Positions 3,116 to 61,600 of a DNA stretch of 64,000 bases are shown here, in pieces. Below the pieces are notes generated by a model, which saw nothing but the letters and a program-made list of their open reading frames with translations, did no database searches and was not told the origin of the DNA. The translations under genes were made by a program, and so were the position numbers. This DNA is from an uncultured virus (IMG/VR IMGVR_UViG_3300008120_000124). Taxonomy: Duplodnaviria > Heunggongvirae > Uroviricota > Caudoviricetes. The first letter of the stretch is position 1, and each line of letters begins with the position of its first letter. The stretch lies in IMG/VR virus record IMGVR_UViG_3300008120_000124, one strand, 5' to 3'.

Positions 3116-3464
3116 ACCAAAAGCTAATAAAACTCCTAAAGTTGTAGAAAACACTTCTTCTTTAGAAGAATCACCAATATATTTAGAGATGAACCAAACT
3201 GCACTAGAACTAGAAAACACTAAAGCAGAACTTGAGTCTGCTAAACAACAGACCAATCAAATGCAAGCAATTGCTCAAGAAGCACTTAATAGATTGGTAA
3301 CTATTGAAACTCGTCTTGCTCCTCAAGCATTACGTAAGCCGAATCTAATGACTATACTTTTCCATTGGAAAGAGCTAATGCTTACTATTGCAGAAATTGT
3401 TTCCCTTATTAAGGAGTTTAAAGATCTGATACAGAAGCAACCTCAAAATGACGCTCCTAAATAG
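3105..3464 (+). CDS. coiled-coil hypothetical protein
   Basis: 119 aa, heptad-like central region; overlaps both neighbours. Confidence 0.6.
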   Translation: MKNKPKANKTPKVVENTSSLEESPIYLEMNQTALELENTKAELESAKQQTNQMQAIAQEALNRLVTIETRLAPQALRKPNLMTILFHWKELMLTIAEIVSLIKEFKDLIQKQPQNDAPK

Positions 3465-3945
3465 TTTTGATATACATAAGGATTTTTTCTCTACTAATCC
3501 TGAGTTGTCAGTTCTATTAAAAGATTTTTTAGAAATACCCTCTGAACATTTATGAGCAATATTTTTATACGCGCACCCTGATTCTAAGTTCTTTGAGCTT
3601 TCCCCTAAAGAACGCCAAGAACTTATTTATAAGGATTACCTTATCTCTGATCCTTCCTTCTCATGGGAGTCCTACTCTGATCTTCTTTCTTTTGTAGAAG
3701 ATAATCTACTTACTAAAGTAGAAAGGGCTCTTATGAGATGGGAAAAGACGCTACATGAAAGAGATGAGTTTATTTCCTCTATACCTTATTCTTTAGATAC
3801 CTTTGAAGCTAAAGATAAGATGGTTGCAAATACCCCCAAATTATGGGATCAGTATGAATCTATTTTAGAGCGGTTAGCTAAAGAACGTCAAACTAAAACT
3901 CATGGAGATTTAGAGGAATCTGCTTCTGAAAAAGGAGAAATTTAG
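3448..3945 (+). CDS. conserved crAss-like protein, possibly terminase small subunit; 1 in-frame TGA (3553)
   Basis: ATG 3448 is in frame with track ORF 3733-3945. The only interruption is TGA 3553-3555 in EHL*AIFLYAHPDSKF. 165 aa with readthrough. Confidence 0.7.
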
Positions 3946-3967
3946 TGGTGTTCTTCACCACTATTAT

Positions 3968-4213
3968 GGGGGCGCCTGGTATTGATTTGGTATATAGTGC
4001 TTACATTAACTGTGATGAAGGTCGTCTACGCCTTAAGTAGATAACAATAAATGACAACTCTTACGCAGATGCACTTATAGTGCCGGAGAACTCTACCAGC
4101 TACGTTTCTCAAGAGGTAGAAATTTTAGAATTAGTTTACGCTTAAATTAAATCACACTTAAAGGTTAATGAAAAGTAATACTGAAGACGCGGGTTCGACT
4201 CCCGCCGCCTCCA
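3968..4213 (+). ncRNA. ssrA: phage-encoded tmRNA (compact, about 246 nt)
   Basis: Acceptor stem GGGGGCG 3968-3974/CGCCTCC 4206-4212 with G3:U70 and discriminator A. T-arm GCGGG-TTCGACT-CCCGC 4189-4205. pk1 pseudoknot AAGG/CCTT plus TCTAC/GTAGA (4018-4041). Tag frame 4053-4145 follows ATAAAT. Confidence 0.9.
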
Positions 4214-4881
4214 CAAATAAAGTTGAACTTATAGGTTACTATGGTTCAGATGAAGTAATAGCTCTTTCTGCATGGACGTCTACATCTAGAGATTTAACCC
4301 CAGAAAAGAAAGAACGTATCCCCGCTTTAATTAAACAGCTTTGGGATGCACACCCAGTTCCACATGGATCTCCGTTTGAAAAGGGAATTGTTCATTTCCT
4401 AGTTACTACGGATATTGCTTCACATATACATTTATTAAAGCATAGAATATCCTCTATTAATGCTGAGTCAGCTAGATATAAAGAACTTAAAGAAGATAAA
4501 TACTATCTACCAGAAGATTGGAAGGGTATTAAGTCTAAAAGATTCCATAAAGATCTTCTCTCTATATTAGAGGAGTATACAAAACTTGGGAATGTTTATT
4601 ATCATGAAGCTGTTAAAGAACTTACACCAGTTCTTGGTAGAAAAAGAGCTAAAGAAACAGCTAGATTTTTTAAGACTTATAATTCTCAGATAACAGCGGA
4701 TGTTATGTTTAATATGCGGTCATTTCATAATTTTATTAATCAAAGGATGGATGATCACGCTCAAAAAGAGATAAGAGAAATTGCTAGAGAAATGCTCTCC
4801 ATAGTCTATAATTTAGAAGGTGCTCCTTTTAAAGCTACATTAGAAGCATGGGGATTTGATAAACCTGAACTTATTGGGTAG
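4168..4881 (+). CDS. thyX: flavin-dependent thymidylate synthase ThyX
   Basis: HGSPFE and HLLKHRISSINAESARY (ThyX motif), NMRSFHNFINQRMDDHAQKEIR. The start ATG lies inside the tmRNA. Confidence 0.9.
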   Translation: MKSNTEDAGSTPAASTNKVELIGYYGSDEVIALSAWTSTSRDLTPEKKERIPALIKQLWDAHPVPHGSPFEKGIVHFLVTTDIASHIHLLKHRISSINAESARYKELKEDKYYLPEDWKGIKSKRFHKDLLSILEEYTKLGNVYYHEAVKELTPVLGRKRAKETARFFKTYNSQITADVMFNMRSFHNFINQRMDDHAQKEIREIAREMLSIVYNLEGAPFKATLEAWGFDKPELIG

Positions 4882-4895
4882 TCGTGGTATAGAAG

Positions 4896-5035
4896 CCTTC
4901 ATTTTAACTTTTGCCAGAAAAGAGAAGGATACAGGGTCCCGCCCTAGTATTTAAATTACAGCGGGAAAAACTGATAACAGTCGTTTATGGACCCGGTTCC
5001 CTAGTCGTAAGATTCAGGGAACTTCCATAACGGCT
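4896..5035 (+). ncRNA. structured spacer / tRNA leader RNA (unassigned)
   Basis: Hairpins CCTTC..GAAGG and TCCCGC..GCGGGA, then a long stem AGTCGTTTATGGA..TCCATAACGGCT enclosing GTTCCCT-AGTC-GTAA-GATT-C-AGGGAAC (GNRA loop). Confidence 0.45.
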
Positions 5036-5039
5036 TTAC

Positions 5040-5132
5040 GGGGGCTACAGTAGCTGGGTACTAACCGATCTTCAAAATCGCTGAACACGCCCTTCCAAAA
5101 GGCGTGCGGGGGTTCGATTCCCTCAGCCCTTG
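5040..5132 (+). tRNA. opal (UGA) suppressor tRNA, anticodon UCA, long variable arm
   Basis: Acceptor GGGGGCT 5040-5046/AGCCCTT 5125-5131, discriminator G5132. D stem AGTA/TACT. Anticodon arm CGAT-CTTCAAA-ATCG (TCA at 5072-5074). Variable arm CACGCC/GGCGTG. T arm GGGGG-TTCGATT-CCCTC. Confidence 0.9.
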
Positions 5133-5147
5133 CTAAAACTTAATTTT

Positions 5148-5822: not shown

Positions 5823-7419
5823 ACAAGTTACGTTTAAAGAAGAAACAAGAGAAAAATTACTTAAAGGTGTAGAAAAAATTTCTAATGCTGTTGGGTCTAC
5901 ATTAGGACCAATGGGTAAGAATGTAATAATCGAAACTCCCTATGGAGCAACTACTGTAACTAAAGATGGTGTAACAGTTGCTAAACATATAGCTTTAGAA
6001 GACCCAGTTGAGAACTTAGCTGTGGATATTCTTAAGCAAGCTGCTGCTAAAACTGCTTCTACTGCTGGAGATGGCACTACTACCTCAACTGTTATTGCTT
6101 CGGCTTTAGTACAAGAGGCATTTAAACTTATTTCTGTTGGTTATCAGCCCATAGAAATTAAAAGAGTCTTTGAGACTTTAAAACACCAGACTATTGTACA
6201 GCTTAATAAGTTATCTACTGGAGAACTTAAGCCACAAGATATTTATGATGTGGCTACTATATCTGCTAATAATGATTCTGACATTGGTGTCCTCATTCTT
6301 TCTGCTTATGAGTATGTTGGTACAGATGGTTTAGTGTCTATGGGAGAATCTAAGACAGGTAATACTTATCTTGAGGCTGTACCTGGAGTATCTATATCTA
6401 AAGGTTATGCTTCCCCTTATTTTATTACAGATTCCGCTAAAGGAGAAGCAGTTTTAGAAAACCCCCTTATATTTATTACTGATAATAAGCTTAGACACAC
6501 AGATGAAGTAATCCCAATTTTGGAGTATGCAGCATCTCGTAGAAAGCCGCTCCTTATTATTGCTGATGCTATTGATGGTCAAGCTCTACAGCTCCTTATA
6601 ATTAATAAGTTACAACAAAGAATATCCGTAGTTGCTGTAGAAGCTCCTTCTTATGGAGAAAATAGAGCGGAACTGCTTCAAGATCTTGCAGCTATAACCT
6701 CTTCTAATATATTTACAACAACAGATGCCTCTAGAGCAACCCTTGATGTTTCCCCTATTAATTTTGGTTCTGCAGAAAAGGTAGTTATCTCTAAAGATAA
6801 GACTGTATTTATTAATCCAGATAAAAACGCTGATAAGGTTGACCAAAGAGTTCAGTTAATAAACTCTAAAATGCTCCAAGATTCTGATAATCCTTATCTT
6901 TTACAACAGTATCAGAAAAGACTTGCGGATCTTAAAGCTAAAGTAGCAATTATTAATGTTGGGGCTGCTACAGAAACAGAATTAAAAGAGAAAAAAGATA
7001 GGGTAGAAGATGCTCTTAAAGCTATTGCAGCAACAATCGTTGAAGGTTATCTCCCAGGAGGTGGTACTGCACTTCTTTATGCTTCATCTAAGATAACTAC
7101 TGATGATCCTATAACAAAAGCATACGTTAATGCTATAAAAGAGCCACTTAGACGTATAGTTTTTAATGCGGGTAAGAGTCCAGATATGGTACTTGCTACA
7201 TTAGAGGCATCTACGGACACTAGTTTTGGATTCGATGCTAAAAGCTTTGAGTATAAAGATTTAAAAGCAGCTGGTATTATTGATCCAACTATGGTAGTTA
7301 CACAAGCAGTTAAGAATGCTGTTTCTGCAGCTAATATGATAATTCTTTCTGACACTGCGATGGTTAATGTAGATAGGACGCCCCCATATACTCCACCATC
7401 ACCAGACTATGTTCAATAA
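5809..7419 (+). CDS. groEL: chaperonin GroEL
   Basis: 536 aa; TLGPMGKNV, TKDGVTVA, AGDGTTT, GAATETELKEKKDRVEDAL, PGGG, GIIDP. Confidence 0.97.
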   Translation: MTPTKQVTFKEETREKLLKGVEKISNAVGSTLGPMGKNVIIETPYGATTVTKDGVTVAKHIALEDPVENLAVDILKQAAAKTASTAGDGTTTSTVIASALVQEAFKLISVGYQPIEIKRVFETLKHQTIVQLNKLSTGELKPQDIYDVATISANNDSDIGVLILSAYEYVGTDGLVSMGESKTGNTYLEAVPGVSISKGYASPYFITDSAKGEAVLENPLIFITDNKLRHTDEVIPILEYAASRRKPLLIIADAIDGQALQLLIINKLQQRISVVAVEAPSYGENRAELLQDLAAITSSNIFTTTDASRATLDVSPINFGSAEKVVISKDKTVFINPDKNADKVDQRVQLINSKMLQDSDNPYLLQQYQKRLADLKAKVAIINVGAATETELKEKKDRVEDALKAIAATIVEGYLPGGGTALLYASSKITTDDPITKAYVNAIKEPLRRIVFNAGKSPDMVLATLEASTDTSFGFDAKSFEYKDLKAAGIIDPTMVVTQAVKNAVSAANMIILSDTAMVNVDRTPPYTPPSPDYVQ

Positions 7420-9649
7420 CAGAGACTTTATAATAAAAGAAGTCCCTGAGTATCATCCTCTATCAATAGATTATAAAACATTTTGACGCGAACAGAAACG
7501 GCGTTGTATCGAAGGTTACTGGGCTGGCGGGACATTTGTTCCCCCAGCCCTTTACTATTATATAAACTTCCATACAATAAGGCTAAATAAATCTATTCAC
7601 TCATCTGTAAAGTCTTTTGGTAGACCTTGACTCAGGGATGTAGAATATAACTTTTTTAATTATTACACTGAAGCCCGTGGATTCTCTGGCTTTAAAGACG
7701 ATGATGAATACTCCTCTCATAGAATACTTTTAACAGATATAGATGATGATACCTTATTAAAGTATTATCCAAATACTATATCCTCCACAGGTTCTCGTAA
7801 AACTTACATTCCCGCGCGAAAGGCTTTATTCCAAACCTATGATTATCCCTTAGGTGCTCCTTTGTTTGAGAATAATCTACAGAATTTTATGCTACTTGGA
7901 TCTCGAGAGTCTGGTAAGTCTTATCAGGTATCAGGACTTATAGCACACAACTATCTTTTTGATGGAGCTACTTATTATAATGAAGAAAGTATAAAGTACC
8001 CCTCCCCAGCTGAGATATTAGTTGGTGCTGAAAAGTCAGATAAATCAGCAGATCTACTTAAAAAAACAAGGGATGCATTTGATTGGCTTCCCGGTAAAAT
8101 ATCTACTTTTGACAGGACCTATCCAGCTCCTTTTTCTAAAAGATTCAGGGGGTCTTGGGATGTTAATAAAGAGATAGTTGCTGAGTATAAAAAACGTGAG
8201 AATGGAGCTTGGATAATTGCGGGATCTAAGTCATCTATTAAGCATAGATCTTTTTCTGCTAACCCATTTGCAGCTCAAGGTACTCGACCTCTTCTTCTAG
8301 TATTAGAAGAGATAGGTATGTTCTCCAACTTAAAACAGGTTTACACAAATACGGTGGATAACCTTCGTAACGGTCTTAGGAAAACAGGTATGCTTATGAT
8401 GATTGGTACTGGTGGTGATATGGAGAAAGGAACTATTGATGCTGCTGAGATGTTTTATGAACCTAATAGATATGATATCTTAACGTTTGAAGATATATGG
8501 GAGCATAGGGGTCAAATAGGATACTTTCTCCCAGCTTATCAAGTTCTTAATGAGTATAAAGATGAGAACTGAGTTACAAATGAAGAGGCAGCTAAAAAAG
8601 CTCTCTTAACAGTTCGTAAACAAAAGGCTGGAGATTCAGGCGGTTCCGAAGCTTTAAATAAAGAGCTTCAATATCGTCCAATAGTTCCTTCAGAAATGTT
8701 CTTAACCAAGACTGCTAATATATTCCCAACAGCAGAACTTAGAAGACGTCTTTCAGAAGTGCAATCTCAAAAGATGGAGGATTACTCTAATAAAGTGACT
8801 CTGTTTTTTGATCCCGCCGCTAAAGTTTATAATGGAGTTAATTACGAAATAAATACTAAACTAACTGCTATAACAAGATTTCCTTACGAAGGAGATGATG
8901 TAGAAGGAGCGGTTATGATATACGAATTCCCAAAACTAGTAGATGATCATGTTCCAGAAGGAGCTTATATAATAGGTTGTGACCCTTATAAAGATGATAC
9001 TTCAACTGGTGGATCTTTAGCTGCCGTCTATGTTATGAAGACTAACAAGTATCCTTCCACTGTTGGATATTCAGAAATAGTTGCTACATATATAGGTAGA
9101 CCTTACCTAGGTAAAAATCAAGTTAATGAGACGTTATACAAACTCTCCTTGTTTTATGGTAATGCTAAAATATACTTTGAGAATAACGTAGGTAACGTAA
9201 AAGATTACTTTGATAAAATACGCCGTCTAGATCTTTTGGCTAGACAACCAGTTACTATTTTTAATAAAAAAGCTTCTTATGATACAGGGCCCCAGATTAT
9301 TTATGGTTACCCCTTATCAAACGATAAAGTTAAATGAGAAGCACTTCAATATGTTCGTTCTTTCCTCTTAGAAGAAAGAGGAGATAATAGACGCAATTTA
9401 GATGTAATACCCGATATAGGATTATTACAAGAATTAATCTCTTATAACCTCGATGGCAACTTTGATAGGGTATCTTCGTTAATAGGATGTGTTTTAGGTC
9501 TAGAAGAAATATCCAATCTTAGTCGCAAAAAATCCATAACCGATAAGGAGCTTTCTCAATTTGAGAAGGACTTTGATAGGTTATTTGTAAACAACACCAG
9601 ACTATTCAATGTACAACTTCCCAAAACAACGCCTTCCTTATTCACGTAA
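7409..9649 (+). CDS. terL: terminase large subunit; 4 in-frame TGA (7484, 7628, 8570, 9335)
   Basis: One frame from ATG 7409 to TAA 9647-9649 (746 aa) with only TGA interruptions. Walker A GSRESGKS, Walker B LLVLEE, nuclease IIGCDPY...GNFDRVS. Confidence 0.93.
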
Positions 9650-18403: not shown

Positions 18404-18997
18404 ATGTTTATACAAAGAAATACATTCTCTGAGTCCCTACTTAAAGTTGATGAACCATTATATAAAGTTTATCACGATTCTACACTTTATGGGGATGGAA
18501 CAAGAGCCAATCCACTAAAAGTAATTGGTGGAGGAGGAACTTCACTACCTGATCAAACAGGTAATATTGGAAAATACCTAACTACTGATGGCGCAACTCT
18601 CAGTTGGGCTACTGTAAATGCACTACCCTCTCAAACAGGAAACGATGGAAAATTCTTATTTACAGATGGAACGACTGCCACTTGAAGCAATCCTGTAAGA
18701 GGAATAAGCGCAACTGTTAATGACGCAAATATTACTCTGAATTTAACTAACGCAGAAATATTTAATCTCACTCTTAATGTCAGTACAACTATTAGTTTTA
18801 CATCTCCAAGATTAGGTACTTTTGTTTTTAGAATAACGCAAGATGGTACTGGCGGAAAAAACGTAACATGGCCTGTTAATGTAAAATGGTCCGGTGGTAT
18901 TGCTCCTGTATTAACAACAACTGCAAATAAAACCGATATCATTACTCTTATTTATGACGGTAATAATTTCTACGGTGCTTATGTACTAAACTTTTAA
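18404..18997 (+). CDS. fibre-type structural protein; 1 in-frame TGA (18683)
   Basis: Internal repeat GKYLTTDGATLSW versus GKFLFTDGTTAT* places TGA opposite Trp. The frame continues (QDGTGGKNVTWP...W.GG.APVL) to TAA 18995-18997, 3 nt before the next ATG. Confidence 0.85.
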
Positions 18998-20477: not shown

Positions 20478-20633
20478 ATGGCATTAACAATAGATAAAAT
20501 TAAAGAAATAAATATTCCAATAAACGTATCGAGAAAGCCTGACAACTTTCCAACTGCGTCTAGAGGAATAGCGCCTTATAACGATTCCGTTAATCTATAT
20601 GAGGCCCTTCAATTATTAGTGGAACAGTGTTAA
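20478..20633 (+). CDS. small hypothetical protein (51 aa)
   Basis: ATG 1 nt after the upstream stop; its TAA overlaps the next ATG (TAATG). Confidence 0.6.
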   Translation: MALTIDKIKEINIPINVSRKPDNFPTASRGIAPYNDSVNLYEALQLLVEQC

Positions 20634-26900: not shown

Positions 26901-27359
26901 ATGAATATAACTTTAAACAGTACTTGTTCACAAATAACAGTAACCTCAGCTATACTTTTAAATACAAATGTAGCCAATACATTAAAAGTTATTTATAAAG
27001 GAACTGAGCACACTGTTACCGTACCAACTAACATATCTACCTTTAACATACTTCCTACGCACGTGGGCATGACAGGTACTTTTACAGATGGTGTTTATAC
27101 TATATTTTTTAGGAACACACTATTAGGCGGTGCTGTTAAAGAAGATAGAGGTTGTGCGGTAAGTCTTTGTAGCACTAAGTGCTCAGACGATATGATTTCA
27201 TGGTACACATCTAAGAACTTAGATAAAGTACTTACTTACGAAGCTCTGAAGGTAGGACAAGATTGCGTTAGTTGCAACTGCTCTACCTTGGAAACACTCT
27301 TTAACGACCTACAAGAAAATGACACCAACACCTGCTCAAATTGCTGCTGCACAGTGTAA
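26901..27359 (+). CDS. Cys-rich structural protein
   Basis: 152 aa, many Cys in the C-terminal half. Confidence 0.65.
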   Translation: MNITLNSTCSQITVTSAILLNTNVANTLKVIYKGTEHTVTVPTNISTFNILPTHVGMTGTFTDGVYTIFFRNTLLGGAVKEDRGCAVSLCSTKCSDDMISWYTSKNLDKVLTYEALKVGQDCVSCNCSTLETLFNDLQENDTNTCSNCCCTV

Positions 27360-29957: not shown

Positions 29958-30360
29958 TTTATACGATGAATACCCAAATAAAGATTTAGTTACCGCTGCT
30001 GAATTTAGACTGATTTTAAAAGTTTTTCATAACCTATTATGTAATGCAATATTTGAGGGAAAAGTATTTAAGTTTCCTTTTGCTGCAGGAGTACTTGGTT
30101 TAATAAAAAGACAACAAAAAAGAAAACAAGTAGACTATACTTCTTTTAATGATACACAATCTGTACATGAATACAGAAACCATCATTCAGAAGGATACAC
30201 TGTTAAAAGTTTATGGATTAGAAATAACCCCCCACTCTTTTTAAAAAGAACTTTTAAGTTTAAACTACAAAGACAAAAAGCTAGACAGCTAGCTCAACTA
30301 ATCAAGCACGAAGGGTATATTTATAAATATAGAGAAGAAAATGAAAACTATTTCAATTAA
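29920..30360 (+). CDS. basic IHF/HU-like protein of the tail module
   Basis: 146 aa; IFEGKVFKFPFAAGVLGLIKR. Confidence 0.5.
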   Translation: MPKTIKYLANWRSLYDEYPNKDLVTAAEFRLILKVFHNLLCNAIFEGKVFKFPFAAGVLGLIKRQQKRKQVDYTSFNDTQSVHEYRNHHSEGYTVKSLWIRNNPPLFLKRTFKFKLQRQKARQLAQLIKHEGYIYKYREENENYFN

Positions 30361-47300: not shown

Positions 47301-50300
47301 AGATTTCGAGAGAAATGTTGGTATAAACACTTCGAAACTTCCAGAATTTACGTTACAAAATACAAACTTGTATAACATTTATAAAATAAATGGACAAGTT
47401 ACTGGTCATGAAACATTGTACGTACAAGAAGGAAGTCAAGGTATAAAATACACATACGATGGTAAACCACAAGAAGACTTAGCAGATATGCTAGATTCTG
47501 ACGGTAAAATTTCTAGAGCACCACTACTTGAAAAATATATAGACCAAGTTTGGGGGAGAGATGCTTTAGAAAACGCTGAAGAAGTTATTAAAAACTTTTC
47601 TAGGTATTGTAAAATAATAGCTTTTAAAAGTATAAACGATGCAAGAAAAGTATTTGGAAAAGACATACCTGCAAGTAAATTACCTAGACCTGGAGTACCT
47701 TATTTAATAATACAAAACATCAAGTTAAAAACTGGGAATGTTGTTAAGCCTCAGTTCATACAATTAGCAACAAAACCAGTTAACAGTAATGACGAGAAAT
47801 ACAAACCGCTTTACGACTTTATAGATAAGTTAAAACAGTTTGAAGATCTTTTACTTAAATCCGCTTACTTACCTGATGTTTATAGAAAGATAAAAGCTGG
47901 CGAACCTGTTGTTTATCAAAACATGCAGTTTTTTCCTATGCATACTTTAGTTAAAGTTTTTTCAGATGCTCATCACGATGAATCTATGAAAACAATAACT
48001 TTGTTAAGTAATAAACAAGCAGGTTTTAAAAATCTTTTTCCAGACTTAAAAAGAGAAAGCATTGATCCAAAACTATTAGAACTTGCTTCAGAACTTGACT
48101 TTTTAATTCACGGCGATTTAAATAGAGTTAAAGACGACAAAGGAAAATGGAAGCATGACACAAGGGCTTTTAAAGGGCCTGCTCAAAGTGTTTTTAATGA
48201 TATAGGATCTCAAAACTTAGTAGCTTCTATAGATCAAGGGGAGAGAGCTGGTAAGCTAGTTTTACTTAGAAATTATAAAGTCAACTATACAACTACAGCT
48301 AATGGTACACAATCAAATACAAGTATTGAAGCTGCCACATTACTGGGACCAATAACTTTTATTAGAAGAGATAACAGAGGAGCAAATAATCCTTTAATTT
48401 CAGAGGATTTGAAATCTAGATTAAGAACTTACGCGGCGTCTTTAGAACAAAGAGGCTTAGAGCAATCAGCTAGATATAAAGCTATTGTTAATTATCTTAA
48501 TGTTATATCTGATCCAACAAAAATACCTCACTCTAATATTTTAACTAGTGAAGATTTATCTGATATTTTCATAGGGTCTAAAGATAGCGATGGTAATCTT
48601 ACAAAAATATCTGGAGGATTTGGATTAAGAACTCCATCTCCTAACAGTGTAAATAATAAGGATACTAACATTGAGAATCAACCCGTAAATCAATTTGTGA
48701 GTCATTTATCTAGAATAGATAAAACTAGAATAATAGTAGCTAAAAATAAAAACGCTGTCCCGACTGAACAAGTTGAAACTGTAAGAAGTAGAAAATACGC
48801 TTTATTAGTTGCTGCTGGAATAGACACTATTTCTGCCGACACTATAGAAGAAATGTTTCCACAGGAAGAAATAGCAGAATTTATATCCACATTAAAAAGT
48901 AACACTTTAGAAGAGGCTCTTGAAAAGTTTAGAAAGAACGCTAAAGAAAAGTTGTATTACGAAACGGAAGTAAATAATAAAATACTTTCAGCTGTACAAA
49001 GTAGGTTAGGAATAAAAACTACTACTAAGGAAATGGTTAAACAAGATTTAATTGATTCCGTAGGTGTAATAGATAACCTTAAACCTTACGCTTCAATACC
49101 AACACCTTTTTTAAGGGCTTCCGTTTTAATTAAGCTTTTAGGAGTTACAGCTGTTTCTCCCAAAGATTTGTTTCCATTGCTAAGTTTTGTTAGAAAAAAT
49201 TACGGGGCAAATAATTATAGAGGGGTTGGATTTGCAGAAGAATTTTTACAACTAGTAGTTAAATATAATACAGACGTTTCTAAAATAATTCCTAGAATAA
49301 ACGAAATTAGCGCGGCTTATAAAGAAGTTGCAGACGAATTAGGGATACCATATAGACCTCTTTTAATTGACGAAAATCTACCTCAAGATGTTATTTATCA
49401 AATGATTGTTGATGGTTTAATTTTCACATTTTTAGAAGGTGGCAACATAAATGGTCAATATTTAAAAGGTGTAAGTGAATTTGGTAGAGAAGCTAGGCAA
49501 AAGCATTTGGATAATCAAATAAACTTAGCCGCAGCTTTTACTAATATAGTTGATAACACAGTTGTAAAAACAGAGGATATTAATACAGTAATAGAAGAAA
49601 CTCCTGACGATAAGATTGAACAAAAAGTAGAACAAGTAGTGGCGGCTGCTGAAAATAAAGTAGTTAGATTTGCTGAAAATTTGTTAGAATGGATTAACAA
49701 TAACGCAGACGCTGAGGCCGCAGATATTATGCAAGAGGCGTATAATATTGATGACGATTTAGCAATTGACTTTATAAATAACCAAGACGCGTATGATAAC
49801 TGGGTATCATTTTTAAAAGACGTTATTAAACAAGGAACTCTGAGTAGATCTAAAAGTTTTTTAACAGAAGATATAGGAACCCCACTTAGTATGAAAGAAG
49901 TGGAAAATCTTGTAGATAGATATACGCCTAGAAGTTTTTTCTCTATGTTAAGAGAAATTGTTTCCGGAAATGCTCCAAGAGAACTTTTTAATATAGTTGA
50001 ATATGGTAAACTTGTTAATAACCAAGGCAAACAAGTTTGGGGGTTATATAAAAATGGCGTACTGCACTTTGCTAAACTTGCTTCTGGAGGCGTTTCTTCA
50101 AAAGTAGTTAGGCACGAGTTATTCCACAAAATATTTTGGGAATATCTAAAACCTTCTGAACAAATAGCAGCTTTAGCTTTAGCTCAAGAAAAGTATGGAA
50201 ATTTAAGTCCAGAGGCTTTAGAAGAAGCACTTGCTGAAGAATTTGAAGATTTTGTTGTTACCAAACGCAAGTCATTATTGTCTAGGCTTTGGGAAAAATT

Positions 50301-53300
50301 AAAACGTTTGTTAGGCTTTAGTTATAACCACATGAATTCTATAGAAGAATTTTTTAACTTAATAGAAAATAAAACGTTTTATAAATCTGTTAGGGGGTTT
50401 GAATCTGTAGAAAGATCTTCGGTTAATGTTAGAGCGGTATTTGATAACTATGATGAATTTAAAATAGTTAAAGATATTATATTAGAAAAAGTAGTTAGAG
50501 ATCAAGTAGAAAGAAGAAAGGCGGAGCAAAATGGAAATGTTCCTGTAAAGTCTTTTGCTGAAATAACTGTAGACGCCATGGCTTATTTGCAAACAGTAAA
50601 AGATATGGACGCTGCAGATTTTCCAGAAGGTTATACTCCAGATCAAATTAATACTGTTAAAAGAGCCGTAACAAAAGCACTTAACAATAAAGATTTCTTA
50701 AATAATTTTAATAATGATTATTTTTCTGATGCAAATAACAGGGTTGATTTTATAGAGTTTCTTAAAGACCTTAGAGATAGAAAGTTAGAAGAAATTAGAA
50801 TATTAAGGGAAGACATAACAGCTAGATTAGAAAGAGGAGAAGAAGTTTCAGCAGATGAAATGTCTGAATTGGAAGAAGATGATGAAATGCTAGGAATCTC
50901 TGACGAAAGATATGACAGCATGTTGGTAGATCCTAAAACTAAACTTACTGGATCTATTAAACAACGCTTGATTTCTATAGAGTACTTTGTTAAAAACGAG
51001 AAACACTACGCCGATTTATCCACAGCTTTTACAATCATTGTTTCTAAAGTTGCTTCAATACCTAAGGGAAGCCTTAAAGAATCTCTAGAAGCAATGGCTA
51101 GAACCTTTACTTACAACATTAAAGACAAACCAAACATTAAGGTTGCTGTTAATAACTATATGTCTAATATGGCTGTTGACATTTTGAAAAAGCTGAATGA
51201 TCCAAATTTACCCAAAAATATTTCTTTCAGAAAAGACGCTAGTCATAAATTTATTTATGCAGTAGTAGATACCCTTAATGAAGATGTTTCACAAGTAACT
51301 AGAAATGATTTAGAAAGTAATCCAACTAGATACAGAGAATTCGTTATTGAGGCTGGTAAAAAGGTAGATGATGTAATTAATGAAATAGCAGAAATAACTT
51401 CTTTAACTAAAGAAAATGTTGCTAAAGTTTATTATTTGTACGAAGATATAGATTTTATTAAATCATTGCTTTCTTCTGTTGGTTCTCTTAGAAAATCTAA
51501 ACCATATGTTTGGCAAAAAGGATTTAAGTATGTCTATAAAATGTCTGGGTACATCGCAAGAAGTGGAGGTGGGCAAAGAACTTTTGTAGCTAATGTGGAG
51601 TTTGCTTTTAATGATTACGTGCAAAAAGCTGTTAATGAAAATAGAAGAGATTTATTTACGCAGGATTTAAAAACAAAAATAGCAAAAGCAAAGGCCAGTC
51701 AAAATATTGAGGATAAAACTAAAGCTGTTAATACATTTTTAAAGGACATAGGCGTAACTAAAAAATTAGGTGATGCTTCAGTTAGTTCAAAAGAAGCTGT
51801 ATTTGAACGACTTAGTAAAAGTATAGATGGCATATCTTCTAGATATAATGCAGCCTTAGACGCAGCTCAAAAAAGTGAATCCGATAATCCTGAAGATAGA
51901 ATTACGGGAACAGAATTGCTTGAAAATGAATACGGACTTTTGGACGAAATAGCTAACATGATTAATTCACATTATACGTTAGCCGAATCCGGAAGTTACA
52001 CTAGAGGCGATGGTAAAAAAGCATATGGTTGGATAGACGCATCTTGGCAAACAGATGTATTCAATATATTCCAAAGAATTAAAGAAAAATTACCATTTAA
52101 AAAGTTATCTATTTTTGAACTTAAAGATGGTAAAATTTCTAGTAATGATGTGTTTTTGAAAGACAATATTTTCTTTACAAAAAAGAACGATATATTTGAA
52201 ACAGTGGACCATGATTCTATTAAATGGAAAGATGGTTCTAAATTTGCTAAGACACTTAGAAAAGAAAATCTTAAAGAGTTTAGAGAAAGAAATATTGCTG
52301 GAAACTTTTTTGTTACTTTAGCAAATAGAGGAGGTAAGTATTATCAAGCTCTTCCAATTCCGTCTAACCGTACGAGCGTTCAAGCTGTTTTAGTTAATAG
52401 CTTTAGAACTCAAGAGACTATTGATGAAGCCATATTACAAATAATACGAGCTCAAAAAAATAGACCTGATCCAGATGCAAAAAATCCTGATGGAAGTTTA
52501 GTTCATCCCGAACTTAATAACTCTAAAACTTATAGAGAGCGTTGGAAAGAATTTACATTTGCAGGATTAAGTGGGAATGTAGATAGTATGACCGAGCAGC
52601 AAGCTTTAAAAGCAGTTAAACAACATGTGGCTAACATGGTAAATGGGGAAAACGGTTTGTTTGAAGCTTTTAAAGAAGAATTAAATTCTCCTCCAGAAGT
52701 TCAGATACCTACTTGGGCAATCAGTAAAGCATCTTCTTTGCTTGGACTAGCAACAATACCTAAATGGGATAACAATTTAACTGATCAAGAAAAAGAACGA
52801 TTTTTTAAACAGAAAAATGCTGCTGTAAAAAAAGGACTAGAGTATTTTTATTACAACTATGTAATCAACCAATATTCTTTATCCCAAATAGTTTACGGAG
52901 ACGAAACTTTTTATAAATCTAAAGAAGATCAAACCAAACGTATCCAGATAGCAACAGCTACTGGAGATACTCTTTTGGTGGATGAGAAATTTGGTATGCC
53001 AAAAACCTCTAAAGTTTTAGTTGTAGAAGATCTTAAGAGAGTAGTAGACCCAACACTTCACGATATGCTGGCTTCTTCTTATGACCAAGAGTATGAAGCT
53101 TCAGATGCTGAAGGATTTATGCTGCCGGAGTTTTACGAGAAACTTGCCTCTGCTTATGGTTTTGACGCTAAAGCGGACGTCATATTAAAACCTGTTTATT
53201 TCTCCATAGAAAATGGAGTTCCTAGAGCTATTAAATATTCTGTTAAAGTATTAACTCCGGAGTTAATAAAACAATATCCTCACCTAGCTTCTTATGCAGA

Positions 53301-54678
53301 TGCCATGAGAGCAAAAGGGGTAGACCAAATGGTTTTCGCTTCTGCTGTTAAAATTGGTAGCCCTGCTGTAAAAGCTAAATTAGACGAAACTGGTAGAATT
53401 ATTGCTTCAAGTTTAGACGAGAAAGCTATTGTTAATATTAATAATGAGAACTTACGTTTCCAGTTAAATCCGGCAAAGAATGTTGAAGGCAGCGTTGCTA
53501 ATAAGTCTCAAGGTACTGCTATGATGAATACCAATGGTAAAAATACAGCAGAAACTTTTGAAATGCATAAAGCAAACGCATTTATAATAGAAAATGGATT
53601 AAGAGGTTTATCTAGAAAACTAAGGCTTACTAGAAAAGGTGGTGTTACAAAAGGCACTGAAAACAAAATACGCAGGATGCTTACCTCGTTACTTCAGGGA
53701 CTTCCGGGAGCAAGAGATGTATACGAAATGCTCAGTTTGGGAACAGGAAAAAATAAGGTTCCATTAGACATGCCTTTGATTGGAGATAGAGTACTTTCCA
53801 ATTTATCTTCAATATTTACAAAAGCAACTACTGGCTTTAGATTCCCTGGTTCTAAACTTGTTCTTCAAGCAGATTTGGGACCAGTGAAAATTGATGGTGT
53901 AATGCGTAACCTTAAGTGGAGAGATGAAAATGGATTTTGCGAAGTTATACTACCTGAAACATATAGACCATATATGGAACAAATTAAAGATGGTATAATT
54001 GGTTTCCGTATCCCCACATCAAACTACCACTCTTTAGTTCCACTTAAAGTTGTTGGTTTTTATCCAGTTCCACCAGGTTCTAAAGGAAACGTTATTATTG
54101 CCCCATCGTTAATAGTTTATTATCATGGATCTGACTACGATATTGATACATTATTTGTAGCTAGAAAAGATTACCCAAATGAAACTATAAACTTAAACGA
54201 ACTTATTAAAGGAATAGATCCAGAACATCAAGATGATCCTAAATTAATAGTTGAGGCTAATGAACCTTATGGATTTAAAAATAACGAATTAATTGATTTT
54301 GATGGTTACAAACTATATGAGTATTTAGATAAATACATATTAAAGGTAAATAAACAATTAGAATCATTAACTAAACAGTTACAAGGAGCATCAGAACTTC
54401 AAAAAGAAGCAATTGAAAATGCTATTGAAGATAAAGAAAAAATATTACAAAGTCTTTCCGATATAGCTGAGTACGCTGCTAAAAACTTTATTGTTCATAA
54501 TTTCTCTACGAATATGAGGAACATGAAAAATAGAAAAGATCTTCTTACACCTATTTCATTTGATAAAATAATAACTCTTAGATCTGAGCTTAAAAAAGAA
54601 CTTAGCGAAAAATTAGATGATGATAAGTTCCTACAAACTCTTGAAGAAAGTGGTTTAATTAAACAGATATGCCAGTAA
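41383..54678 (+). CDS. giant virion protein: SF1 helicase-like domain, zincin motif and RNA polymerase catalytic part; 1 in-frame TGA (42088)
   Basis: 4431 aa with readthrough. APAGAGKS 45736-45759, IIVDEAG about 45946-45966, YAATSRA 46651-46671; HELFH 50113-50127; GFRIPT 54001; GSDYDID 54127-54147. Confidence 0.85.
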
Positions 54679-57600
54679 CTTGTAAATATATAATAAATGA
54701 TGTAGAATATACCAAAGAAGAACTTAAGCAAATGTTATTGGAAAAAGGAATGGGGGTTTTACTTGAAGGAGTAGAATCCCCTTCTCCACTAGCTTCTGTG
54801 ATAGTTGAGAGGTATGATTTTATGAATAAAACCGAGTCTATAATGGAGTTGTGAACTCGGTTAGAAATAAAGAAAAATGGTAAGGAAGTAAGTGGTTATG
54901 TAACTAAAAAACAAGCTGACGAAGCACTTAATCCAAAAGGAAATCTTACCGATTACTCCACACAAGAAAAAATAAGATACAACACTTATTCCGGTATTGC
55001 TCTTACTGGTATAGTAGCCAACTTCTCTAAAGTGTTTGGTTATATCTTTGACGCTACTCCTCCAACAGAAATATTAGACACCAGAACTAAAACTGTAATG
55101 TCTGTTAATAGTGCGGAGATAAAAACTTTAATGCAAGAAAATGATGCTCCAACTATCGAAAGGCTCATCGAAAAGATGCCCCACTTAAGAATAACAGGAA
55201 GGGAGAATCCAAAATTTTCGGATATGAAGATTTTTTCTGGTAAGGGGGCTAATGAAGTTGTTTCTTCTTCATTTATAAAATGAAATGGAAAAGCTTTAAA
55301 CGCATTTAGACGCATAGCTTTTGATGGTACTAATGTGTTCGAAGACATAGATACATTAATTAACCTTGCTATTGACAACGTTAAAATGCAAAAGCTTCAC
55401 TTGCTGGGCATTACAAACACAAATGCTAATATATTTTTGACGCTTCTTGCTAGTGGGGTACCTCTTAATTCAGTATCTTTGATGTTTAAATCTCCAGTAA
55501 TAGCTAAGATCAGTGAAGGAAAAAGATGGACACAAGAAAGTATTGAGGAGATAAGTAAAGACTTGCACAAAACTTACGCAAGTAATGAAGACTTGTGGCC
55601 TGAAGTGGCTAGAATATTAAAAGACGAGTATAACGTACAGCTCTCCGAAACAAAAATATCTGGACAAAGCTTTTTACCTCTTAATAGTATATTATTTGGT
55701 TTGTACGGCCAACAAGGTAAAAGTACTAAAGGTTTAACTGATGAACTTCTAGAAAAAGTTTACACTGGACAAGCGTCAGAAGCTGAAACTCTTATTGCCA
55801 ATTTGTTTCTTTTAGAAACTATGCGAGCAATGATACCTCTTGGCCAAGAGACATTTAAACAATCAATGATATATAAAGGTCTTCGTTATTTGCCGAATAA
55901 AATGTGGCAGATAACTTCGCTTATAGATAACATAGAAAGTTTAGCTCACTTTAAAGGAGAGGCTACTGGAACTAGAGGAGAAATCAAGAGTATTGCAGAA
56001 AGAATAGTTGGCAGAATTACTGGTATAGAAAAAGAAGAAGCTTTAGAGTTTGTTAAAGAATTCAGCTCTATGATGTACACAGCTAACAATCAAATTAGAG
56101 CTAACTATGTTAACCGCGTAATAAGAAAAACAACATCCAGAAAAGTTGAGCCCTCTAATTCTTCGGCTTTTTCTAATGTCGCTATATTAAATTTGCCACA
56201 CGTTAAGGCGCTTTATAGAACAGCAATAACTTTTAGAAATGTTTTGGAGCAAATATTTAATATATATTCACCAACAGTTCAAAGATTTGTAGAAAATATA
56301 ACTAAAGAAGCAAACTTATTTAGTGCGTATGACTCTATGGACAAGGCTGGAGAAGTTTCGAAAGAATTAATTAAGTTTTTAACTTCCAATCTTAAATTTA
56401 AAATAGGGGATGTCGAAGTTTCAAATTATGTTGAAGGAAACGCTGAAAATGCTAGAGCCTGGCAAAGAGAATTTGTAAACACTTTATTTAAAGTACACAA
56501 TGAATTAGATGACAACTCATTTGTAAACTCACTAGAATTTAGTAGTTATAATGGCGTTAATAGAGCTATGATAGTAGCTGACAAATTAGATGATGATGAA
56601 GTAATAGAAAGAATTAGAGACGGATTTGAAAAGTTGTATAATACAGAAGAAGTTCCAATTGGAGATGGAAAATTTATTAGTGGCAAGCAATTAGCATTAG
56701 ATTTATTTAAATACTCTTTGATGACCGATAGTATGTACTATGAGAAAACCGGTTTTTCATTAATATTTCCTCCCGAATGGGGATTTGCTTTTGCTAAAGC
56801 TTTTGCTGCTCGCATGGAATCTGTTATTCCAAAAGATTCTTACACTACTGACGCAAACCTATTGAGTATAAAAGACAAGTTTTTGTATCAGTTAGTTAGG
56901 GCTAGACCAGATCTTATTGGTAGATTTCCAAAAGCAAAACCAGTTACAGTTAAAGTTCCAGTGCCGCAAACTAAAATCAAAAAAACTATTTATGCTGGAA
57001 GTACAAATTACCAAACAAGTAACACACCTCGAATTCAAGTAAGTCAATTACCTGCTACTGTTAAACCTACAATAGATTTATCAAGAGAATGGAAAGGTGA
57101 CTTAGAATCAAGACCTGTTTATACTTCCGAAGGTGTAAATACTATGAGGACTACTTCTGCTAAACCTAATGAACATTTTGGTAATCCTTTTAGTGAAATG
57201 GGTTACGGTAATACTATAAAAGTATCCAGTATAGGAGCAGCTGTTAGAATGTACAAAGATTGGTTGTTAAATGGAGCTGTTTCTGAATCAGAAATTGTAA
57301 CAGGCGGCATTAAAGCTTTAGAAAAGTTTGATGAACAAAGATTATGGATACTTGATCAGATTAATCAAGGTAAACTTGATAATGCTACACTACTGTATGC
57401 TGGTAAATTGGAAGCTAGAGGTCAAGGAACACATGCAAAAGCTTTATTAGAAGTAATTGAAAAATTAAGAAGTGAGACTACTATTACTAGTAGAACATTT
57501 GAAAATGAAAACGCTACTGCCACTGTTCATTATGATTTAGTTTTCCCAGTAGCGCCGAACGCATCTACCCCTAGATTTATAAGTTATTATGATCAAGGTG

Positions 57601-58658
57601 TGTTTATGCTTGTAGATACTCCTGGAAGTGGTATGTCCTACTATGTAAAAATAGGGGATAAAACTCCTAGTGCTTATAATTTTTCTCTTTTCGATTTAGA
57701 TAAATCGTTTGATTTAAAAGCCTTGTTTAATCTTGGAGATTATAAACTTGTTAATAGTAGCATTATTCAAGGGGGTAAAATAAGATTAAAAAAGAAAAAA
57801 CTATCTTTACAAAAGTTTGATCGTGTGTTAGCGATTGATTTATATTCTGTAGATCCAACAACAGCCACTGCTTATTACGTTAAAGATATACAAGAATCTG
57901 AGGGAGTAACTACTTATATTTTAGGAGCAACTGAACAAAGACCTATGTACTCCACTCAATTAATTGAAAGGGTTAGAAAAGGTTTTAAAAAGTTTCTTAA
58001 CACCGATGTTAACGCTACCGTTGTGGTTGATACGGTATCAGAATATTTTAGAAAAGAAAGAACAAGTAAAGATTTAGAAGCATCTACTATTGTTATTTCT
58101 CCTAAAGAAGAACGTTCTATAAAGTTACCATTTTTTAACATACCAAAAGATTTAACTGAGCAGCAACAACAAGATATACTAGATGAAACTGCCGTGATAT
58201 TAAATGAAAAAGTAAAAGATGGAGCAACAATAGTTATAACTAAAGATGTTTTTGATTCGGTTAGACGGTATAAAATATTAAATAGAGGTCTTGTAGATTT
58301 ATTTTATAATAAATTGAATTATATAGACAGAATACTTCCGCCAACTAATGTTCAACAAAAATCGCCAGAGCTAACTATAGCAATTAAAGAAAACGAATTA
58401 GACGTTGAAATGGTTGGAAATATTAGTTTAACTAAAGATGCAAGTGGTTTAGTTTATACCCCTGCACAAGGACCGCTTGCTAAAAAGAAAGAGGGAGATA
58501 TACTTTATTTTGGTAATGGGCTGTATGCTTTTGTATCGGCTAATACTGGAACTAATTTAACTATGTTTACTTTTGATAAAACCTTTTTACAAGAATTAGA
58601 AAAAGGAATGAAAACAGCAGACTTTATAGAAGTCTATAATCAAAAAAATAAGTGCTAA
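54669..58658 (+). CDS. virion RNA polymerase C-terminal part with a DUF4326-like insert; 2 in-frame TGA (54852, 55281)
   Basis: Track ORFs 54669, 55032 and 55335 form one frame (1329 aa). GIALTGIVAN; LINLAIDNVK (AIDNVK at 55368-55385); HFGNPF...YKDWL insert near 57170-57270. Confidence 0.8.
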
Positions 58659-61600
58659 TGGTCTGTCCAAATAAAAACTCAGAAGAGTGGAGAAGGCTTG
58701 TAGAAATGCACGGAGAAGAAGCTGCTTTGGTATTGTATAATACTGAAGCAGTAACTCCTTCGTTTAACGAACCCGTCTACAATGCTATATTAACTGCAAT
58801 ACGAAGAAACCCAGTATTCTTTAGAACTAAATATGCAGATTTTTTAGGGGGTTCAACTTTTTCAGAAGAACTAATGGCTAGAATTTTTTATTCTAGGTTT
58901 GATGGTTTAAATGCTAAGTTAGAAGGAGATAGTGTAATTGTAGAAAATCTTGCGCAACAAAGCAACAAAATTGAAATTATACCAGAATTAGAAGAAAGAC
59001 TAGTAAAAGGATTTTTAAAGGACTTTAATATTGAAGTTAAAGAATACACTTCTATAAAAAATGACTTGGGTTTTGACGCTTTATCCATGTCTGATTTAGT
59101 AACTAAATTTATTGCTTATCAAGAAGGAGAAAGTGTTACTGGAGAAGTAGCCTATTTTGCATATAACATGTTAGGTAAACAAAATAATAAAATTAAATCT
59201 AATCAGAGTGGAAAAATAAAATAAAAGATCTTGTAATATTAGATTTTCTACAAGAAAAACTTATACAGTACTATAAAAATCCAACTGCATTTGAAAAATT
59301 AAATGATAGCAAATGAACGTCAGAAGATTTTACTACGTGGAAAAAAATCATAAAAGCGATAGAAGATTTTTTGAAAGACATTAATTTTTATTTTGCAGAT
59401 AATACTAAAAAGTTACGCGAATTAAATAACATTGGGGTGTCTATTGCTGATGAAATATTAAATCAAAATTATCAGTACTTCAACTATAATTTAAAAGAAG
59501 ATCAAATAAGAAAGTATTATAAAAATACTATTGAAAGTGATACTTTCGCTAAATCCCTTGTAGAGTTTGGTCAAAAAGAACTCAATCTAGTACTAACAGG
59601 TTCGCTAGCGTTAAGAAGAGCAGGAACTGTTTATCGCACAGCAGATGAAACTATCCACGATATTGATTGGGTAGTTCCGTACGAATTAAATAGTAGCCCA
59701 CAAAATCAAGAAGTATATAATGATATTGTAAATAATGAGTATGCTCCTATCAGAGATTCTTACATTGAAGGTTTAAAAATTGATGACGTTTCTAAAAACA
59801 CTTTAACGCATATTCAAAGATTAGATTGGTTTTCAAAATTTAAAGATAGGTATCCAAGTTTTGAATTTGTACAAGGATTTTACGGTGGGGAACACACTAA
59901 AAAAGAATCTTTTACTGCGCAAGGAGTAATTGATGGTCAATTTTATGAAGAAGACGGTTATCATACAGAACAATATTCTTTTTATAAAAAAGATCCTAAA
60001 ACTAAAAAACCTGTTAAAACAACTGTTTCTAGAAAAGTTAAGCATCGAAAAGGAGAATGGGTTAAGGAAACAGGATATGTAGTAGACTTTTTTGTTAGGC
60101 TGCAACCTAAACAAGAAGAGCATGAAAATTACTTTAAGCTTTGGAAAGAAATCATGATCGCTAAACTTAAAATGGGTAGGGATAAAGATTTTATAGATTG
60201 GAAAGCTTTTGTACCGTACGTTAAGTCAAAAGATTCTTACAATTTTAATTACGAGGGATACAGGCATATAAACTGGTCAGAAACTAATCAAAATAATGCT
60301 TTTGAACAGGAAGTTTCTCCATTTAAAGAGGAATTACGAGAAGAAAATGTTAATCTGGAAGAAAAAATGTCTTTGTTTCCAGAAACTAATCAAGATGTTT
60401 TCTTACCGGTAAAAGCTAGTACAAAGTTAACTAATTTATTAGAAGAGCTTTCTGCTAGATTTTCAATACCGTATCAAATAATAGATGACCCAAACCAAAA
60501 ATTTAAAGGTAAATATGTAAATAAGGGGAAAGAAAAGATAGTAGTAATTAACGTTGCTTATGCGACCGAAGATACTCCGCTTCACGAATATTATCACCCA
60601 TTTGTATCTACATTAATGCAAACTTCTCCACAAACATTTGAAATTCTTTATAAAGAATCTTATGTTAACAATGGGATAGAGGATAGAGAAGAGAGTGTTG
60701 TTCAGTATTTAGGAGAGCAAGCTATAAGTAATAAATATAATCTATATCTAAAATACTTTTTAAATTATATTAAAAACTTTTTAGGATTAAAAAACTCTTT
60801 AACAGCTACCTCAACGCTAATAGAAGTTTTAAATACTTTTGAAAGGGGTATGACCATTTCTGATAACGTAATAAGAACTGCTTATCAAAGATTAGATGAA
60901 GCCGAGGAAGCTGTAGCCAATGGGCTTGGAGCTAAAAAGAAACCTAAAATAGATTATATTAATGAGTTAGAAAAACAAGCACAGGGCTGGTCTTCTTTTG
61001 ATAATTCTGTATATTATGAAAACATTAGTACTGGAGAAAAAGCTAAACGTATTACTTCATTTGTTGGGGATGTGGAAGTTGGAGAATTTTCTTCTAAGCA
61101 AAAACGCTATTCTAACAGTGATGCTGAATATGAGGCGAAAAAAGTTTTTGCTAGAAATGGTGTAAATATATATGATAAAAACGAAGATGAAATAAAAGAA
61201 ACAATAACTATACAAGGTGAAAGGTTGACTTTTCAAGATGTGTATAGAACTATTGAAGCCAGATTAAATGAGTTTAAAAATAAAGGTAAGTTAATTCACG
61301 CTTATTTTCAATATGTTTTAGAACAAAATCCACAAAAGAAAGAAGAAGCTAAGCAAAACGCTATTAAGTATGCCAAAGCAACTAAGGCAGATTTTATTTC
61401 ATTAGAGTCTCATCCCAGCATTAAAAGAATAAAAAATAATTTAGATAAAATTTTTGAAGCTGCGGGAGTTATAGTAGACTTGGATAATACTCTACCCCCA
61501 GGATTAAGAGACAAAGTTTCTTCAGAAGGGGTAATAGTTTCTGATTTAATGGTAGATAAGGATGGTAATAAACTTGCTACAACATATGACGGACTTTTTG

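Follow-up and report, generated by a model that had tools for sequence, protein, structure and literature searches.

We examined a 64,000-nt stretch of DNA from an uncultured virus (IMG/VR record IMGVR_UViG_3300008120_000124), called the window below, in which the stop codon TGA interrupts many genes and appears to be read as tryptophan with the help of a phage-encoded suppressor tRNA, tRNA(UCA). All coordinates are those of the window unless another record is named. The parts of the genome outside it were read from two near-identical viral records, G001 (99.9% identity to window positions 8670-64000) and G007 (100% identity to positions 1-3000), which combined give a full genome of about 99,632 bp. 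The window has a G+C content of 34.7%, and its plus strand carries nearly all of its large open reading frames (ORFs). The window is best explained as that half of a crAss-like phage genome (about 99.6 kb, from freshwater metagenomes) which holds the late genes. A previous interpretation made by a model from the letters, without database searches (the sequence-only reading), had referred to stop-codon reassignment as known in Crassvirales. Comparison with PHROGs supports membership of this group, with a crAss-type large terminase subunit TerL (phrog_6681), portal (phrog_6547) and major head protein (phrog_11589), and a block of giant proteins. The closest records in phage collections are Cellulophaga phage phi14:2 (35% identity in TerL), Flavobacterium phages and gut crAss-like phages; the assignment comes from these best relatives and the marker genes. 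The same phage was found in contigs of runs from 12 studies, with the run labels freshwater, aquatic or 'fungus' metagenome.

The sequence-only reading listed 16 in-frame TGA codons in 11 genes that would be full-length on readthrough, and both counts hold: all 16 positions carry TGA, and reading TGA as sense (a table 4-like call compared with table 11) joins the table-11 fragments. The 11 frames that result, all on the plus strand, either abut their neighbors or overlap them. Leftmost is a small gene of unassigned function (3388..3945, likely start at ATG 3448) with a TGA at 3553. The TerL gene (7409..9649; phrog_6681, E 1.9e-100) has four, at 7484, 7628, 8570 and 9335. Two frames have two each: that of a 1,417-aa virion structural protein (31029..35282; phrog_15100; TGA at 32871 and 35019) and that of a 1,329-aa protein (54669..58658; TGA at 54852 and 55281). 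There is one in each of the others, which encode a tail-fiber-like protein (18404..18997; phrog_9017; TGA at 18683), a fiber-like protein of 1,855 aa (20627..26194; TGA at 20714), two structural-module products (27319..28707, TGA at 27961; 30341..31042, TGA at 30404), a 652-aa protein (39409..41367; TGA at 41191), a giant protein of 4,431 aa (41383..54678; TGA at 42088) and another giant protein that continues past the window end (59230..63999; TGA at 59314).

Across 27 late frames, comprising 19,298 codons, we counted 15 in-frame TGA, 164 TGG and no in-frame TAA or TAG, and all 27 terminate in TAA or TAG, as the sequence-only reading had said of the genes in general. Behind the TGAs the frames stay open for 47 to 4,195 codons. 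Given the frequency of TAA plus TAG in the other two frames (8.07% per codon), the probability of such runs ranges from 2e-2 down to 5e-154, with a summed log10 P of -406, so chance is ruled out. Reading TAG as sense fuses no genes and lengthens TAG-ended genes by only 1-31 codons, in keeping with the earlier remark that there are no comparable premature TAGs; TAG is a true stop. The same TGAs are present in assemblies L001, L002, L003, L010, L011, L016, L019, L020 and G001 (94.7-99.9% identity), one of which is possibly the window's own source, and some are retained in relatives at about 70% DNA identity. Contigs of four runs span 3300-9700, which includes five TGA sites, and neither confirm nor refute the bases there. 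A contig from an RNA library covers 3396-3564 and matches the window including TGA 3553, a weak sign since DNA is possible in such libraries. We conclude that TGA is read as sense in these genes.

To find the residue opposite each TGA, queries carried X at these positions, so that there was no bias toward Trp. TerL columns were taken from the best 120 of 1,004 homologs with E <= 1e-10. Site 7484 is W in 88 of 90 non-gap residues (T 1, V 1, gaps 30), and site 9335 is W in 73 of 117 (L 12, A 7, others 22, gaps 3). Site 7628 is variable (W 21, L 21, F 15, N 10, D 10, others 30, gaps 13). As a control, the five TGG columns of the window's own TerL give W in 91, 89, 108 and 95 of the 120 at four positions, the fifth being unconserved. 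Relatives show TGG opposite TGA at 8 of the 16 sites: at all four in TerL, at 27961 (L016, G002 and G005), at 30404 (G002 and G005), at 35019 (G001, L016, G002, G005 and L017) and at 54852 (G002/L025 and G005). This exchange occurs even among strains at 95-99.9% nucleotide identity (L010 at 8570, L016 at 27961 and 35019, G001 at 35019). TGA itself is common to diverged relatives at 3553 (G005, with 62% aa identity), 7484 (L008 and L009), 7628 (L006) and 9335 (L009).

Within the tail-fiber-like protein the internal repeat that had been pointed out before does align in exact register, GKYLTTDGATLSW against GKFLFTDGTTAT-TGA, with W opposite TGA 18683. Distant tail-fiber homologs of this protein from three phage records were not counted because of unreliable alignment; they place K or S opposite the TGA and a W two residues off. 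In the reciprocal test, the in-frame TGAs of relatives are matched by a window TGA in 19 cases, by W in 17, by N in two, and by Y, K and A in one each; with the window-TGA cells excluded, W accounts for 17 of 22 cells and 12 of 16 distinct sites. By these comparisons, which agree with the residue proposed in the sequence-only reading, TGA is shown to behave as the equivalent of TGG (Trp) in the virion genes, and likewise in the replication genes.

The sequence-only reading described recoding as a property of the late genes; these are indeed recoded, but the restriction to them does not stand. The late block ends beyond the window end, where a minus-strand block converges on it. In the distal part of this minus-strand block, read from the 99.9% identical genome, the DNA polymerase gene is cut by TGA into L030:14055-14666 (which ends in TGA) and 14715-15779, matching phrog_17 positions 717-883 and 931-1229, and the helicase, primase and exonuclease genes are also interrupted by TGA. 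TGA recoding is denser in the replication genes than in the late genes. We compared 23 replication-block TGA positions with the related genome G002 in stop-to-stop frames, and found W at 8, a stop (of any codon type) at 10 and Y, S, A, L and P at one each; the stops of G002 itself face W 11 times in these frames.

The proximal early block, next to the window start, differs: its aligned frames have no in-frame TGA. By mechanical ORF calls, TGA ends 6 of its 15 ORFs of at least 100 aa, two of them with ATGA start/stop overlaps, and 5 of 12 smaller minus-strand ORFs. Seven orthologous ORF ends could be aligned with G002 to within 13 residues: both genomes have TGA at two of them, TGA and TAG are exchanged at two, and at the other three each genome has TAA or TAG. 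An additional ortholog ends in TAA here and TGA in G002, in an alignment that ended 48 residues before the end. TGA thus behaves as a stop codon in early genes and as a Trp codon in those for replication and the virion, that is, the genome uses two codes. The TGA ends of the early block, swapping with TAG and TAA, make it most likely that the host uses the standard code, and together with the ATGA overlaps give indirect support to what had been supposed of the host before. No phage tryptophanyl-tRNA synthetase (TrpRS) or release factor was found among the ORFs scanned, which cover part of the total.

The putative opal suppressor lies at 5040..5133 (+), with its UCA anticodon at 5072-5074. It is the single tRNA that ARAGORN found in the window, under the label 'tRNA-SeC(tca)'. 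Its 7-bp acceptor stem begins with G1.U72 and G2.U71, followed by three G-C pairs, and the discriminator is G73. It has a 4-bp D stem, the anticodon loop CUUCAAA and a normal T arm. The long extra arm consists of a 6-bp stem, CACGCC/GGCGUG, preceded by 4-5 unpaired bases (a feature that we take to be unlike tRNA-Ser), and a 9-nt loop, CUUCCAAAA, that contains U-CCA-AA. L008 and G005 carry homologs of 94 and 98 nt, respectively, beside the same genes, and in all four stems other than the acceptor (D, anticodon, extra and T) base changes on one side are compensated on the other. The extra-arm loop is retained in both, as CUUCCAAAA in L008 and as GUCCAAA in G005, and G73 is kept too.

The nearest Rfam family is tRNA-Sec (RF01852), at 36 bits against a gathering score of 47 and with non-canonical D-arm positions. 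We rejected a tRNA-Sec identity on this score and because the D stem is of 4 rather than 6 bp and the acceptor stem of 7 bp by ARAGORN. The tRNA also departs from a canonical bacterial tRNA-Trp, having the anticodon UCA, an extra region of 21-27 nt, and its CCA in the extra-arm loop. A tRNA with G73 and a long extra arm would ordinarily be assigned to Ser. The layout of GUCCAAA matches that of the tRNA-Trp anticodon loop, with U second, then CCA, then AA, and the CCA loop in the extra arm may resolve the conflict between the long arm (Ser) and the alignments (Trp). Recognition by bacterial TrpRS rests on G73, on C34-C35-A36 of the anticodon and on the first base pair (accessible text of PMC9976931). 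Two runs, X5 and X7, have contigs with an insertion of about 705 nt exactly in the anticodon loop, at window 5073-5076 (the record jumps from 2546 to 3252 and from 7116 to 7822, respectively). Some strains may thus have a group I intron or mobile element in the suppressor tRNA; G008 and the window lack the insertion.

At a probability of roughly 0.87, we favor the reading that this phage has a two-code genome, in which TGA is read as Trp by its own tRNA(UCA) and the early block keeps the standard code. The early minus-strand block, mostly outside the window, would be translated by the uninfected host. The phage tRNA(UCA) would then accumulate, probably charged with Trp by the host TrpRS, and decode the in-frame TGAs of replication and virion genes as Trp. 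Recoded genes would yield full-length products only once it had accumulated, providing a built-in timer, and the neighboring tmRNA (transfer-messenger RNA) may handle ribosomes that run through TGA stops. From the evidence above we infer, with good support, that tRNA(UCA) decodes these TGAs with Trp and that the dependence of full-length recoded products on it gives temporal control.

Several points weigh against this reading. The early and replication blocks are known from G001 and G007 and not from the window itself. The deeper homologs favor Gly at TerL site 8570: it stands in 114 of the 120, against R and N in two each and L and K in one each. In sole diverged relatives, along stretches of 20-40% local identity, the residue opposite is P at 32871, N or K at 41191, R at 42088 and I at 55281; those at 41191 and 42088 come from G002 and G005 and are weakly or poorly aligned. 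For 18683, 20714 and 59314 the searches found same-species copies and no diverged homolog; at 18683 all these copies carry TGA, and at 59314 L019 and G001 do. Two internal repeats in the protein of 20627-26194 show Y at the 20714 position, and its N-terminal 200 aa gave no database match spanning the TGA. The tally for the 16 sites is thus TGG at eight, five uninformative or non-W, and three without a diverged homolog. Textbook rules associate a long extra arm, such as this tRNA has, with Ser, Leu, Tyr or Sec and not with Trp (PMC9976931, accessible text). Lastly, the case is comparative throughout, and the residue inserted is deduced from alignments.

If the extra arm made the tRNA a substrate of seryl-tRNA synthetase (SerRS), TGA could be read as Ser, or else as Sec or Cys, with the proteins tolerating the residue; both ARAGORN and Rfam place the tRNA nearest tRNA-Sec. 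We consider this very unlikely. TGA swaps with TGG and never with TCN or AGY, Ser is never found opposite a window TGA in the genomic relatives, and otherwise it is seen in 5 of the 120 TerL sequences at variable site 7628 and at one of the 23 replication positions. W is near-invariant at 7484, and for Sec the tRNA falls short of the gathering score and lacks the 6-bp D stem. Some mischarging of tRNA(UCA) with Ser may occur. Slightly less probable again is a host that itself uses translation table 4, so that TGA is Trp with no phage-specific switch. Such a host would fit the in-frame TGAs of replication as well as virion genes, most of the genome being recoded; it would not fit the early-block ORFs ending in TGA (6 among the 15 of at least 100 aa, 5 among the 12 below that size), their ATGA overlaps and their swaps with TAG and TAA, nor a phage that brings its own tRNA(UCA), nor the use of TGA for only 15 of 179 Trp-type codons in the late genes. 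The closest cultured relatives, moreover, infect Cellulophaga and Flavobacterium, which use the standard code.

Reading TGA as Gly, as in table 25, draws on the Gly column at 8570 and on GGA being one change from TGA. It can be given hardly any credence, because L010, at 95% identity, has TGG at that exact codon, all other informative sites favor W, and no TGA-GGN exchange was seen elsewhere. Trp at 8570 is instead lineage-specific, and the TGG of L010 is the same Trp written the other way. It is equally improbable that the TGAs are assembly or sequencing errors or mark decaying pseudogenes, for which the mere presence of stops in essential genes speaks. Against this stand the recurrence of the same TGAs in up to nine other assemblies, the retention of some of them at about 70% DNA identity, frames that remain open for hundreds to thousands of codons, and the finding of the phage in runs of 12 studies.

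The extra arm of this tRNA turned out to have counterparts. We scanned viral contigs for a T loop at 30-50 nt from a UCA anticodon loop, with the extra arm unconstrained, and considered 80 of at least 119 matches. Among these matches listed, ARAGORN identified 8 long-arm tRNA(UCA)s; 6 of the 8 have UCCAA in the predicted extra-arm hairpin loop, exactly GUCCAAA in 4 of the 6, and the remaining 2 resemble ordinary bacterial tRNA-Sec. None of 20,000 shufflings of the extra regions gives 6. The acceptor stems of the tRNA(UCA)s with UCCAA all differ. A reverse scan, for GTCCAAA upstream of a T loop, placed the motif in 16 tRNAs among the matches listed (80 loci); 8 are long-arm tRNA(UCA)s, of which 4 are new, and in the others the motif lies within a stem, the D loop or the true anticodon loop. 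The family now has 13 distinct sequences, all with G73; the 1-72 pair is A1-U72 in 8, G1.U72 in 3 and G1-C72 in 2, and the extra hairpin has 4-8 bp and a loop of 7-9 nt. A scan of bacterial genomes with a pattern that included the motif gave two more members, on a Parabacteroides contig and on a small contig of a metagenome-assembled genome, and one true tRNA-Sec with a chance UCCAAAA in its loop.

In two of three other phage contigs with a Trp-type tRNA, the longest ORF grows when TGA is read as sense, from 1,274 to 3,923 aa and from 1,054 to 3,001 aa. Growth of the longest ORF was used alone here; ORF coverage was dropped as a test of recoding because TAA-as-sense raises it equally. Structures were taken from per-sequence folds, as RNAalifold on a MAFFT alignment gave the acceptor, anticodon and T stems only, with the D and extra arms out of register.

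As a control we scanned for an amber anticodon loop (80 loci among the matches listed). There are 7 long-arm tRNA(CUA)s among the matches listed, and every one of them contains the Gln anticodon CUG in its extra region (shuffle P 0.0003); CUGA is found in 6 of the 7 (0 of 20,000 shuffles), and the motif is in or at the hairpin loop in 6 of the 7. They are on contigs L406, L407, L418, L450, L455, L465 and L466, and are labeled 'tRNA-Pyl' by ARAGORN; most have G73 and a weak 1-72 pair (A-U, U-A or A.C). Thus in two independent classes the extra-arm triplet tracks the residue that phages assign to the stop codon, Trp for TGA and Gln for TAG.

We suggest that a second, cognate anticodon hairpin in the variable-arm position solves the identity problem of suppressors, with U-CCA-AA for Trp and C/U-CUG-AA for Gln, the host TrpRS or glutaminyl-tRNA synthetase (GlnRS) doing the charging; to us this is as apt to prove wrong as right. 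The ordinary anticodon arm would go on reading the stop, with UCA for UGA and CUA for UAG. The tRNA(UCA) of the window would belong to the Trp class of this design, and the adjoining conserved tmRNA would be part of the same code-switch kit. We give about even odds that host TrpRS recognizes G73 and the acceptor stem along with the CCA hairpin.

An engineered precedent is known. In the artificial tRNAs of Mukai (2020; PMC7590224, available text) a variable-arm hairpin mimics the cognate anticodon and recruits the synthetase, and the real anticodon reads the stop. The amino acid was His, the HisRS had been given an additional anticodon-binding domain by fusion, and the gain in charging was modest; the author noted that the tip of the variable arm is far from the acceptor end. 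Here, in contrast, the tRNAs are natural, the triplet is CCA (Trp), and an unmodified host TrpRS would have to suffice. A single nucleotide, the normal number, separates the D stem from the stop-reading arm. Between the extra arm and the T stem there are 4-6 nt in many members, as in a normal variable loop, and 1 nt in the window tRNA. With such spacings either arm could occupy the anticodon position, which would answer the geometric objection, and there may be two alternative stackings, one for charging and one for decoding. In a literature search whose scope left subscription journals and supplements aside, and which took in the available texts of PMC12386605 and 10.1101/2023.06.13.544163, we came upon no natural suppressor tRNA described as having an extra arm that resembles an anticodon arm; the architecture appears to be a widespread class, so far undescribed.

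The tmRNA gene (3968..4216 (+), about 250 nt) is 0.8 kb upstream of tRNA(UCA). It scores 62.9 bits with Rfam RF00023 (gathering score 47; model positions 1-374), and ARAGORN agrees. Both RNA genes fall inside the interval marked in the sequence-only reading and were overlooked there. At about 70% DNA identity, relatives still keep a tmRNA beside tRNA(UCA); it was seen in L008 (70.4 bits), in G005/L029 (53.4 bits, 124 nt upstream) and in G008. In contigs from the RNA library, adapter abuts about 3976 and about 4215, as for a discrete small RNA, which is a weak hint. Suppressor tRNAs of E. coli push ribosomes past stops to mRNA ends, loading trans-translation. We speculate that the phage tmRNA offsets the stalling cost of global readthrough; its conservation as a partner of the suppressor hints that phages manage this cost as well. 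The tag that ARAGORN assigns to it has 30 aa, which is unusually long, and ends in LVYA. The ORF of a thymidylate synthase (4168-4881; PHROGs) shares 49 nt with the tmRNA 3' end (4168-4216); its true start may be further downstream, since the family match starts at residue 14.

Recoding of TGA to Trp with a suppressor in a two-code genome is already established for crAss-like phages. The gut phages described by Yutin et al. (2021; PMC7886860) are alike in having TGA in TerL and other conserved genes, Trp by alignment, a phage tRNA(UCA) and a part of the genome in the standard code. The phage treated here belongs to a freshwater lineage and has recoded replication genes too; the available main text of Yutin et al. 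does not describe the shape of the suppressor, and the word 'tmRNA' is absent from it. Borges et al. (10.1101/2021.08.26.457843, available text) likewise described standard-code early genes, with the suppressor first and recoded genes later, and proposed charging by host TrpRS. In their data only 35% of code-4 genomes had a TGA suppressor, and how such tRNAs are charged was left open; to their account the present tRNA adds a hairpin like the Trp anticodon, and 'tmRNA' is absent from their text as available. With tRNA-Sec and the allo-tRNAs (Mukai et al., 2016; PMC5389517, accessible text) the tRNA shares a long extra arm, UCA, G73 and the gene-finder label 'tRNA-SeC'. It differs from them in having 7/5 (at most 8/5) acceptor/T stems and a 4-bp D stem, rather than 8/4, 9/3 or a 6-bp D stem, and in a residue that is apparently Trp, not Ser, Sec or Cys.

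What is distinctive here is the habitat and lineage, the recoded replication genes, the tmRNA partner and above all the architecture of the suppressor tRNA, a design that may be new. The known range of this recoding now takes in a freshwater lineage, which turned up in runs from 12 studies. The proposed design, if true, would explain how phage suppressors are correctly charged by host synthetases that read the anticodon, the question that Borges et al. left open, and why gene finders label such tRNAs 'SeC' or 'Pyl'. It would also offer a natural template for orthogonal suppressor design, and suggests that annotation pipelines could infer the inserted residue from the tRNA alone.

Among the other genes of the window, a GroEL-like chaperonin (5809-7419 (+); phrog_5725, E 4e-130) lies directly upstream of the TerL gene and overlaps it. 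The portal is encoded at 9609-12029 and the major head protein at 13150-14649, and other tail-fiber-like proteins were found. Several TerL relatives (P0005, P0010, P0025, P0035 and others) are about 1,070-1,110 aa long and have the intein/homing-endonuclease Pfam domains PF14528 and PF05204, which the window TerL does not have.

The names given to genes in the sequence-only reading fared unevenly: terminase was confirmed by phrog_6681, while 'muzzle', for the 31029-35282 product, and 'virion RNAP', for the 4,431-aa protein, received no confirmation from PHROGs or the Protein Data Bank (PDB). Three giant proteins are without a family assignment in PHROGs, where 41383-54678 gave no match, and PDB sequence searches with 41383-54678, 59230-end and 31029-35282 gave none. 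Near the C-terminus of the 4,431-aa protein is a DYDID motif (HGSDYDIDTLF), which recalls the DxDxD motif of crAss-like RNA polymerase subunits (Yutin et al., 2021; available text of PMC7886860).

At window 59204/59205, G001 has 97 additional bases, which join the upstream frame to the next giant gene in a single 2,016-aa frame (G001rc 50098, about window 58767). The window has instead a TAA at 59222-59224 and two frames; the discrepancy is either a strain difference or an assembly difference. In L016, which is 99% identical, the homolog of 31029-35282 has TAA at codon 217, where the window has a Tyr codon. This is apparently a nonsense polymorphism or an error, TAA otherwise never being read through.

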